Part shown: piece by piece, positions 23,256-25,327 of the stretch
Position numbering within the stretch: the first letter of the stretch is position 1
How the letters are laid out: each line of letters begins with the position of its first letter
Source of the DNA: Bacteroidia bacterium
GTDB lineage: Bacteria; Bacteroidota; Bacteroidia; J057; JADKCL01
Length of the DNA stretch: 64,000 bases
Direction of reading: 5' to 3'
Assembly (NCBI GenBank): GCA_020635905.1
Contig: JACJYV010000006.1
Location: 24,060-88,059, forward strand
The notes under the pieces: model-generated
What the model was told of the DNA's origin: nothing
What the model saw: the letters and a program-made list of their open reading frames with translations, nothing else
The model's database searches: none
Made by a program: the position numbers and the translations under genes

Positions 23256-23315
23256 CCTGACCTCCCCCAACCTTATCTACTTTTCAACAATCTTTGGGCC
23301 TAAGCCCAACACTGC
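23256..23315 (+). repeat. 60-bp direct repeat, copy A
   Basis: CCTGACCTCCCCCAACCTTATCTACTTTTCAACAATCTTTGGGCCTAAGCCCAACACTGC; differs from 25267-25327 by 6 mismatches and 1 indel. Confidence 0.9.
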
Positions 23316-23323
23316 CGATGAGG

Positions 23324-23851
23324 ATGAATAATTTTTCAGGGGCTTCATATTGGTATGAGGCATTTTACCTGGCTCAGAAAAAAGATTGGTTAAATGCACT
23401 TTACCTTCTGACCGAAGTCTTCAGAATTGAATACGGGAATGAAGCCTTCGCATTTGAACAAAGAATGAGTTCAAAGGGGCCGAATTACTCGAATTTCGAT
23501 TCGTTCTTATTATCACTATTCGGACATCCGCAAACCCATCTTATTTCTTTAGGGGAAATCTTCAGACTGGGTTGGGAAATATATCCTGATCAATTGTGGA
23601 TGTCTATGTTGGTTAGCGGCCAATTCGACTCCCATTGGCATGACACTTCGTTTGAGCGTATCACCTTTCCCGCGTCCAGTTCTTTGAGTTTCAATCAGGG
23701 ATACAGAGGAGAGGCCAATGAAGATTGGGTGACAAAAACTATTCTTGCATTCGCAGAAAATAGGCTAATTCTTTCAGGAAAGGAAGGAAGTTATTGGCTT
23801 AATTTCCCTACCATTATTAACTTTCGCTGGCAGGTCTTCTTGGAGATCTAA
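23324..23851 (+). CDS. Putative orphan immunity protein, distant paralogue of 18377-19201
   Basis: Both start MNNF and share I.L...F......P.Q.W...L..G..D at nearly the same register. Confidence 0.55.
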   Translation: MNNFSGASYWYEAFYLAQKKDWLNALYLLTEVFRIEYGNEAFAFEQRMSSKGPNYSNFDSFLLSLFGHPQTHLISLGEIFRLGWEIYPDQLWMSMLVSGQFDSHWHDTSFERITFPASSSLSFNQGYRGEANEDWVTKTILAFAENRLILSGKEGSYWLNFPTIINFRWQVFLEI

Positions 23852-23866
23852 AAACCTCATTCTATT

Positions 23867-24343
23867 GTGGCAGGAAACTTCTGGAGAAAAGGTATCCAAA
23901 ATGTGGTGAGTGCTATGGCGCCAAATATCACAGTTAACCAGCGGATTATCAGTCAGATGAAAGCCGCGGGAGATAGTACCAATAATTTCGGACCAACAGG
24001 AGATGATTTACAATGTCAAACCTGCGAAAATGAGCAGGGACCTTACTCATTAATTCAAAGAAGGGAAATGGCGAGGACTAGCCACCCAAAGGTAAGCGGA
24101 AATCCCGCCAGTTTTGAGGGACAGAACTTTTCAAGTATGTCTGATGAATTAATTGAGGCCATAACTGATGAAAAAATCCAGTCCGTATTAGATGACATTT
24201 TGGACCGCTTCTTCCTGTCAGGAGTTATTAACCCGGGAGATGACCTGCATACCATTGCTTCATCTGACAATGCCACGATGCAATTTTTGGACAATATCCG
24301 AATTGAAGTAAAAAGATTAGTAACAACCTCAGTACCTGTTTGA
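23867..24343 (+). CDS. Putative orphan toxin-tip cassette (DUF4157-type linker remnants)
   Basis: Contains SQMK, LQCQTCENEQ and LIQRR, resembling QxK/CxxC/IQR linkers of DUF4157 proteins; stop lies 1 nt before an immunity-like gene. Confidence 0.5.
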   Translation: MAGNFWRKGIQNVVSAMAPNITVNQRIISQMKAAGDSTNNFGPTGDDLQCQTCENEQGPYSLIQRREMARTSHPKVSGNPASFEGQNFSSMSDELIEAITDEKIQSVLDDILDRFFLSGVINPGDDLHTIASSDNATMQFLDNIRIEVKRLVTTSVPV

Positions 24344-24344
24344 A

Positions 24345-25058
24345 ATGGAACTTAACCCTGATTACAATCTGGAAAGAAGTATTGCTTACATTTTGGACAA
24401 AAGCTGGGGATTATTTGATAAGATTAACCCCATTGACCAAATAGATTTGAAAGATGATTCGATTCCTCAAATTTTTAAGGAATTACCCGGAAAGTCCAAA
24501 ATGGAATCTTTGGAACTAATTTGGAAGGATGCATTTTTGTACTTACCTGATTTTCGAAAACTCCTTGAATCATCCCTGATTGGACTCTTTGTTGGAAATG
24601 GCATCATAGGACCTGTTTTGGTTTATTTTCTTGAAAGGTGGGATCAAAGGAGCGGGGCGGATGGTATAATGATGGCTTGTCCTCCTACAAACGAACAAGA
24701 TATCACGGCATGGGAAGCAAAAAATGGCACCCTCCCTGATTCAATCAAAAAGATTTGGAAGGCACATGGATTTCTTCTATTGAGAGGTGGCGTTCCTTTT
24801 ACGTCCTTATTGCCCAGCAATCCATCCATTATATCTCATCCCGTAAATTTTGGAGAAAAACATAATCTAAACGATCCCAAGCAAAAACTTGAATGCCTAG
24901 GAATTGCCGGGATTTCTGCCGACTATCCATTCTGCCTCACCAGACAGATAGGAGAAAAAATTTGGACGGATAATTTAGTGGATGTATTTAGATTTGGAAA
25001 TACCTGGGAAGAGGGCGGTCATTCCAGTCTGGATAGTTTATTTGTTGGATATGAATAA
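24345..25058 (+). CDS. SMI1/KNR4-like immunity protein
   Basis: EQDITAWEAKNGTLPDSIKKIW resembles the SMI1/KNR4 'I..lE..lg..LP' motif; tightly coupled to the upstream ORF. Confidence 0.55.
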   Translation: MELNPDYNLERSIAYILDKSWGLFDKINPIDQIDLKDDSIPQIFKELPGKSKMESLELIWKDAFLYLPDFRKLLESSLIGLFVGNGIIGPVLVYFLERWDQRSGADGIMMACPPTNEQDITAWEAKNGTLPDSIKKIWKAHGFLLLRGGVPFTSLLPSNPSIISHPVNFGEKHNLNDPKQKLECLGIAGISADYPFCLTRQIGEKIWTDNLVDVFRFGNTWEEGGHSSLDSLFVGYE

Positions 25059-25266
25059 AAAAAGCAATTAAGGAGTTAATCAAAGAAAGATGAGGTCAGT
25101 ATCCTTATAGCGAATCTGGTTACATTCATTAGGTTTGGCGGCTCATAAATGACGGGAACAAATTTTCTACTCGCCCCCAATGCCATCATGAAATATACCC
25201 TCAGCAAGGGGTTCAATCCATCCAACCTGAGCGAAAGCGCCCGAATATTTTATGGGGTCGCTCTTG

Positions 25267-25327
25267 CCTGACCTCCCCCCAACCTTATCCACTTTTCAAC
25301 AATCCTTGAGCCTAATCCCAATCCTGC
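25267..25327 (+). repeat. 60-bp direct repeat, copy B (carB upstream region)
   Basis: CCTGACCTCCCCCCAACCTTATCCACTTTTCAACAATCCTTGAGCCTAATCCCAATCCTGC, directly followed by the carB -7 box. Confidence 0.9.

Follow-up and report, generated by a model that had tools for sequence, protein, structure and literature searches.

The stretch of DNA analysed here (the window) comprises 64,000 nt of contig JACJYV010000006.1 (positions 24,060 to 88,059, forward strand) of the Bacteroidia bacterium assembly GCA_020635905.1. It carries an array of small genes that is headed by a polymorphic toxin gene and followed by carB, which encodes the large subunit of carbamoyl-phosphate synthase. The non-coding sequence directly upstream of carB occurs twice at this locus. 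Copy B (25249-25327, + strand) corresponds to the native upstream half of the carB promoter, and copy A (23227-23315, + strand) appears to be a truncated, displaced duplicate of the carB upstream region, situated at a gene border within the array. The best explanation of this arrangement, and one towards which we lean without regarding it as assured, is that copy A represents a fossil array/carB junction left by one-sided, homology-anchored recombination, of the type known as homology-facilitated illegitimate recombination (HFIR), with the toxin-carB locus of a relative. We infer recombination as the mechanism behind copy A, and the two copies would be orthologous junctions from two lineages.

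In a gapped local alignment, the homologous part measures 89 nt in copy A (23227-23315) and 79 nt in copy B (25249-25327), with 69 of the 78 aligned positions identical and with one 10-nt and two 1-nt indels. The ungapped core of the pair spans 23249-23315 and 25261-25327, and runs of perfect identity reach at most 14 nt, a length attained twice. An earlier note on this DNA had described a direct repeat of about 60 bp and about 88% identity at 23256-23315 and 25267-25327, and BLAST returns 88.5% identity over 61 columns for these segments. The same note had regarded a repeat dispersed throughout the genome as incompatible with its proposal. In BLAST searches of the 8.48-Mb assembly (29 contigs), each copy matches only itself and its nearby partner, and the match between the two is far above chance (E ~1e-10 to 1e-13 against the whole genome). 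Thus, the pair is neither a chance resemblance nor a dispersed element. Logan contigs of two different runs, SRR12358675 and SRR12358676, cover positions 23204-25521 and 23173-25523 of the window at 100% identity and both hold the two copies together with the bracketed block, indicating that the pair is not an artefact of the genome assembly. The ends of these contigs nearly coincide between the runs, being separated by 31 nt within a 137-aa open reading frame (ORF) on one side and by only 2 nt on the other, where they fall at codon 57 of carB. This suggests branch points of the assembly graph, that is, strain variants flanking the block in the source samples. An inverted match between 22884-22909 and 25096-25121 (26 nt, 81%) was judged to be due to chance, as were the other inverted pairs.

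The housekeeping promoters of Bacteroidota follow the consensus TTTG at -33 and TAnnTTTG at -7. Copy B directly abuts a -7 box of this type, TAACTTTG, located by pattern scan at 25328-25335 (+ strand), which is followed by a 17-nt leader and the ATG of carB at 25353 (25353-28166, + strand; 937 aa; Pfam CPSase_L_D2 and other domains). A TTG within copy B ends 19 nt upstream of the box, and the sequence at the -33 position reads CTTG. Taken together, copy B and 25328-25335 fit the Bacteroidota promoter layout, with a box, a TTG ~19 nt upstream of it and a short leader. The homology between the two copies ends exactly at the edge of TAACTTTG. The sequence TAA(C/T)TTTGC is found 17-18 nt upstream of the carB start codon at all seven loci compared, which belong to other genera within the family and order, and the last bases of copy B, CAATCCTGC, resemble CAATCCTAC and CAAACCTGC present in two of these seven loci. 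The conservation of the box and leader and the likeness of CAATCCTGC to its counterparts indicate that the repeated sequence natively belongs upstream of carB, in agreement with the earlier description of a locus-specific two-copy element in which copy B is the original. Further upstream, beyond the last ~10 nt, no conservation of the repeat is detectable in front of carB in other genera, and the 40 relatives compared have in common only the -7 box and the leader. The repeat thus comprises the remainder of the intergenic region together with the carB promoter's upstream half. Copy B is C-rich (~51% G+C) and sits at the edge of the low-GC array. It is separated from the last array gene by a non-coding spacer of 190 nt (25059-25248) with no significant likeness to the array proteins; when all array proteins were used as tblastn queries in search of a remnant gene in this spacer, only noise was returned.

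Copy A occupies the entire stop-to-start gap between two array genes. It begins 2 nt after the stop codon of the 137-aa ORF (22812-23225, + strand), for which no homologues were found and which is the last gene before the seam, and its last base is 23315. An in-frame ATG (23318) follows after 2 nt, and the sequence ATG AAT AAT TTT at 23324 after 8 nt. It is, as the earlier note had it, a truncated duplicate at a cassette border that halts just before the -7 box. A -33-like TTTG is kept (23294-23297), whereas the -7 box is missing, so that copy A is best described as a decapitated promoter fragment and not as a promoter. A pattern scan for TAnnTTTG found no match on the + strand between 18548 and 24442. 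Furthermore, a terminator-like hairpin (23208-23220) with a T-rich tail overlaps the stop codon of the 137-aa ORF. It is conceivable that copy A is a selected regulatory duplicate, an operator or upstream promoter element placing the genes behind it under carB control. Its TTTG is a better -33 element than the CTTG of copy B, and it lies immediately upstream of a gene start. However, a -7 box is missing from any workable position downstream of it, other genera do not conserve the repeat in front of carB outside its last bases, and no reason is evident for co-regulating immunity genes with pyrimidine/arginine synthesis, which makes this possibility very improbable. Today, the repeat probably has no role beyond the promoter function of copy B.

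The array in which copy A lies has the organization of a polymorphic-toxin locus. It is headed by an ORF of 1537 aa (13754/13778-18367, + strand) with an eCIS_core (DUF4157) domain, recognized by its Pfam match. The body of the toxin gene has 55-60% G+C, and its last ~1 kb only 38-42%. The G+C content drops at ~17400 to 35-43% and remains low until ~25250, with the exception of an insertion sequence (IS) of the IS66 family. This low-GC stretch contains same-strand ORFs of 274, 210, 137, 175/185, 158 and 237 aa, none of which has a Pfam match even at E <= 10. A conserved toxin body, a compositionally foreign tip and orphan genes downstream make up the layout of an HFIR effector-displacement array, and all three are present here. 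A perfect Bacteroidota -7 box, TATTTTTG, which is the sole canonical one upstream of the array, is found 21 nt before the ATG at 13778 (13749-13778). The toxin therefore probably starts at this ATG rather than at the TTG at 13754.

For the effector-immunity arrays of Vibrio cholerae's type VI secretion system (T6SS), HFIR was proposed by Kirchberger et al. 2017 (PMC5361080). In that model, the incoming module is anchored through conserved sequence upstream, is joined illegitimately at its other end and displaces the old effector, whose immunity gene persists downstream. At the carB locus, the donor would be a related bacterium with the same toxin-carB locus. One end of the donor fragment would cross over in conserved sequence, either the toxin body or carB, and the other would be joined illegitimately, at a seam that we place at 23315/23316. 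Donor and recipient would each contribute their own version of the junction, so that two ~88%-identical copies come to bracket the distal 1.95-kb block. Either of two polarities would fit the structure. In the first, the toxin body would serve as the anchor and the incoming DNA would comprise the new tip, the genes for the 274-, 210- and 137-aa proteins and the donor junction to just short of its -7 box. This junction would have become copy A, with the illegitimate joint a few bases ahead of the old immunity gene (175 aa). The older tip would have been displaced, and the distal block with copy B would be the older, resident part. In the second polarity, carB would be the anchor and the incoming DNA would consist of the block of 175-, 158- and 237-aa genes, the spacer, copy B and the start of carB, joined to the end of the resident junction, that is, copy A. 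The latter corresponds to the version of the earlier note, and a recombination origin with the carB side as the homology anchor is indeed a reasonable explanation. Its corollary that the distal block was the last to be added does not follow, since the same structure would arise if the proximal part had displaced an older effector, as in the model of PMC5361080. The first polarity has a published precedent and would account for the presence of a paralogue of the gene in the cognate position as the first gene after the seam.

This paralogue is the 177/175-aa ORF (23318-23851, + strand; MNNF... from 23324). In a pairwise BLASTP comparison, its 175-aa product is weakly similar (E = 2e-6) to the 274-aa protein encoded directly downstream of the toxin (18377-19201), and both proteins start with MNNF. 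No homologues other than this paralogue were found, and on sequence grounds we consider the 175-aa ORF a candidate orphan immunity gene. The second gene of the block (23867-24343, + strand; 158 aa, or 142 aa from the ATG at 23915) had been taken for a toxin tip, which is not borne out, as no similarity was detected to the main toxin, to Pfam families or in 78 genomes of the order. The third gene (24345-25058, + strand) encodes a protein of 237 aa with ~35 relatives in a library of 1.84 billion proteins, a family for which there is no Pfam model of its own. An AlphaFold2 model built from the family alignment scores high (predicted local distance difference test, pLDDT, 95; predicted template-modelling score, pTM, 0.91). 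The 14 best Protein Data Bank matches of this model are all yeast Knr4, with bacterial SMI1/KNR4 entries ranking lower, and the Knr4 matches are weak (E ~0.01-0.1, TM ~0.33-0.37). Weak Pfam SMI1_KNR4 matches are also found in 3 of 29 family members, and one homologue is located in a same-strand multi-gene array beside a SUFU-family gene. Judging from the model and these matches, it is reasonable to regard the 237-aa protein as immunity-like, with a remote SUKH (SMI1/KNR4) fold. Thus, the SMI1/KNR4 assignment made earlier is retained as a remote relationship, supported by weak fold matches (E ~0.01-0.1, TM ~0.35) and weak Pfam signals. With the 175-aa paralogue as the first gene after the seam and the SUKH-like gene as the last, the block fits a set of retained orphan immunity genes.

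The carB locus has a true parallel in the same genome. Contig C24 carries, at ~90-103 kb (90000-104100), a second low-GC array of small same-strand ORFs, which ends at proC (103262-104074, - strand). One of its genes is a YD/RHS-like fragment (RHS_repeat, E = 0.015, below the cut-off) and another belongs to the DMP19 family (E = 3e-19); two more encode lipoproteins, of 225 and 230 aa, that are paralogues of each other. The distal edge of this array (102916-103020) recurs inside it at 95218-95368, with 87.6% identity over 105 nt, and partial copies are found at 98609-98681 and 99340-99385. The end points of the three internal copies are nested and unequal, consistent with illegitimate joints, whereas fixed borders are expected of site-specific attachment (att) sites. 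The two junction repeats also have two short words in common. The 11-mer CAACAATCCTT, found in copy B and the C24 repeat, is present three times in the genome versus ~4 expected; it was noticed post hoc and is not evidence of a relationship. Two of its three genome copies, at C26:49356 (25297 of the window) and C24:95288, lie in junction repeats. The 10-mer TCCCCCCAAC is also common to the carB and C24 junction repeats. This sharing is possibly due to chance (BLAST E = 0.02 and 0.08 in a small search). A broader generalization would be that, in this lineage, toxin-immunity arrays beside housekeeping genes grow by regular flank-anchored capture, each event leaving a junction stub and perhaps the preferred homology for the next capture or loss. 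We regard it as doubtful. If true, nested stubs would be 'growth rings' from which one could read how many acquisitions there were, in which order they came and where they ended, the stub being half of the carB promoter in one array and the region downstream of proC in the array on C24.

Direct repeats on both sides of an insert are also the signature of Campbell-type integration, and the earlier note had suggested that the repeat could be att-like. In this scenario, a circle consisting of the three genes, the spacer and one copy of the repeat would have integrated by a crossover within the repeat, either site-specific, with a recombinase acting in trans, or RecA-mediated, and could be excised again, allowing the array to grow or shrink beside carB. 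The coincidence of the homology limits of both copies would follow by construction, and the locus specificity of the repeat is in line with such a site. However, among the ORFs of the window between 4.4 and 35 kb, Pfam searches revealed no integrase, recombinase or resolvase within ~10 kb of the repeat, except for that of the IS66 element. The repeat is absent from all other cassette borders of the carB array, where only the one pair exists. No clear attC-type hairpin or conserved structure is seen: the + strand folds of the two copies are no better than those of shuffled sequences (z = -1.3 and -0.6), no + strand RNA fold is shared between them, and folding of the - strand gives modest structures (z = -2.8 and -2.4) that resemble each other only loosely. 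The longest perfect identity, 14 nt, is poor for RecA, the analogous repeats on C24 do not have fixed borders, and a circle carrying a fragment of the carB promoter requires a prior two-copy state. No tRNA or tmRNA gene is present in the window, so that the repeat is not a copy of a tRNA 3' end, and Rfam has no match in 22700-25500. The lack of a recombinase, tRNA or Rfam match, together with the nested ends on C24, favours an HFIR scar over an att site, and we consider integration of a circle unlikely. A present-day homologous loop-out between copies A and B is possible in principle, despite the lack of a perfect run longer than 14 nt.

A further scenario involves duplication in situ within a single lineage, as a long target duplication or as a tandem duplication that was later overwritten, followed by ~12% divergence and indels. 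The presence of exactly two copies, close together and in direct orientation, and the many local non-coding duplications elsewhere in the genome are compatible with it. Nonetheless, a target duplication of 79-89 nt far exceeds known transposase footprints, and the block has neither a transposase nor terminal inverted repeats. The ~12% divergence and three indels need great age, yet the three small ORFs of the block are intact, and no relationship exists between the sequences that lie inside and outside the copies. We therefore find duplication in situ rather improbable. In particular, a transposon target-site duplication was rejected as the source of the pair. Such duplications are short (2-14 bp) and identical and flank a transposase-bearing element with terminal inverted repeats, whereas the copies here measure 79-89 nt, are 88% identical and enclose a block that lacks these features. 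By contrast, the nearby IS66 element is flanked by an 8-bp target duplication.

Several observations weigh against an HFIR origin of copy A. The nearest CarB homologues in a collection of 5.8 billion proteins are 82-83% identical, and no relatives were retrieved for the repeat core by exact-pattern scans of genome and metagenome contig collections or for the 137-aa and 175-aa ORFs by protein-guided scans of such collections (0 matches in each case). Look-ups of exact products (the 137-aa ORF, full and partial CarB and the 57-aa CarB stub) recovered only the two Logan contigs already known. The collections searched hold no close relatives, and family-level relatives have different genes upstream of carB, with no shared synteny. 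Neither overall composition nor G+C content at third codon positions (GC3) separates the two sides of the seam, and neither reveals a donor tract in carB. The seam lies 2-8 nt from the start of the next ORF and coincides exactly with the -7 box edge, which would be a coincidence under a random illegitimate joint in either polarity. In addition, according to a whole-genome self-BLAST, this genome is not poor in local direct repeats of non-coding sequence with lengths of 45-200 nt. Most of them are multi-copy elements, IS flanks or parts of an integrase-bearing island, but local two-copy non-coding repeats are fairly common, and not every pair needs an HFIR explanation. Finally, the interpretation of the C24 locus as a toxin array depends on weak matches (RHS_repeat, E = 0.015; DMP19, E = 3e-19).

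If copy A is an HFIR scar, it belongs to a known kind of event, namely displacement in a polymorphic-toxin array. The carB locus resembles the V. cholerae T6SS arrays in its conserved toxin body, foreign low-GC tip and same-strand orphan genes downstream, as well as in the one-sided anchor and in the ancestral immunity gene that would be kept just downstream of the seam. It differs in its marker, which copies the flank downstream and not a fragment of the toxin core, and in its toxin, an eCIS_core/DUF4157 protein from a member of the Bacteroidota. A related process at rhs loci, 'C-terminal displacement', is attributed to Jackson et al. 2009, as cited in PMC5361080. HFIR itself has been reported in transformable bacteria (de Vries & Wackernagel 2002; Prudhomme et al. 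2002; Meier & Wackernagel 2003, all as cited in PMC5361080) and in connection with Escherichia coli conjugation (PMC3240628). As in these experimental systems, a homologous crossover at one end would be combined with an illegitimate joint at the other, and recipient sequence can come to adjoin orthologous donor sequence; unlike in the experiments, the mechanism at carB is one that we infer from a single scar. Small same-strand genes, immunity genes among them, with repeats at their borders are also a feature of integron attC/attI cassettes and of the recombinase-associated immunity islands of Bacteroidales (rAID-1), reportedly described by Ross and colleagues in 2019. Unlike in those systems, the carB array lacks an integrase or recombinase, has the repeat at one border only, and the repeat shows no clear attC-like hairpin and appears to derive from the promoter of a neighbouring housekeeping gene. 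The small peculiarity of the carB locus lies in the nature of the marker, which is the neighbour's promoter stub instead of toxin core, and the presence of a similar second array in the same genome.

The assembly of orphan toxin/immunity arrays has mostly been deduced from gene order, and the proposed illegitimate joints can seldom be seen. The neighbour's promoter, stranded as a second copy, would mark one such joint to the base, and copy A would show that at least one piece of DNA originated in a genome where toxin and carB were arranged in the same way. Taken alone and in one uncultured genome, copy A is an ordinary scar of recombination, and no function is evident for it at present. With more genomes of the genus, the two copies would allow the relative age of the parts of the array to be read and the end of the incoming fragment to be located.

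Other repeats in the genome are of different kinds. The orphan Rhs array at C27:157100-162415 (- strand) resembles the carB locus in having repeats that bracket toxin/immunity blocks. Two of its genes are fragments that combine Rhs core and tip (369 and 409 aa), and membrane proteins of 243 aa are duplicated. A coding fragment of the Rhs core occurs three times, at 94-99% identity, and one of these copies is a short stub at the distal end. Unlike at carB, where the repeat is a non-coding flank, the repeats encode Rhs core (...VTDYVGS(Y/C)VYENSTLEFFFTAEGRAV...), the textbook signature of displacement, and C27:157-162 kb was for this reason rejected as a third example. A pair downstream of C27:410645 was likewise discarded, as it encodes a conserved segment at the C terminus of three small proteins that are paralogues. 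Across the whole genome, 29 matches to the eCIS_core (DUF4157) domain were found, in open frames of 220-1864 aa, an unusually large repertoire for one genome of 8.5 Mb; among these 29, a non-coding junction copy was found at the carB locus only.

The IS66-family element lies within the array at 20054-22743 (+ strand). It has 23-nt terminal inverted repeats and an 8-bp target duplication, ATGCCAAT, and is itself unrelated to the carB repeat. The fourth ORF of this element (22303-22710; 135 aa) has no Pfam match. Identical or near-identical copies are present on C1, C7 and C12, indicating that the four-gene IS66 element is active and multi-copy. The ORFs flanking the array (~4.4-35 kb, by Pfam) encode metabolic enzymes, a histidine kinase, an M43 peptidase with a sorting tail of the type IX secretion system (T9SS) and AAA_21 ATPases. 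Elsewhere, at C1:1079652-1086801, perfect 46-nt direct repeats 7.1 kb apart enclose a low-GC block. The first ORF of this block (423 aa) has a C-terminal tyrosine-recombinase-like motif, recognized by eye, and the whole has the appearance of a small integrated element that carries att sites.

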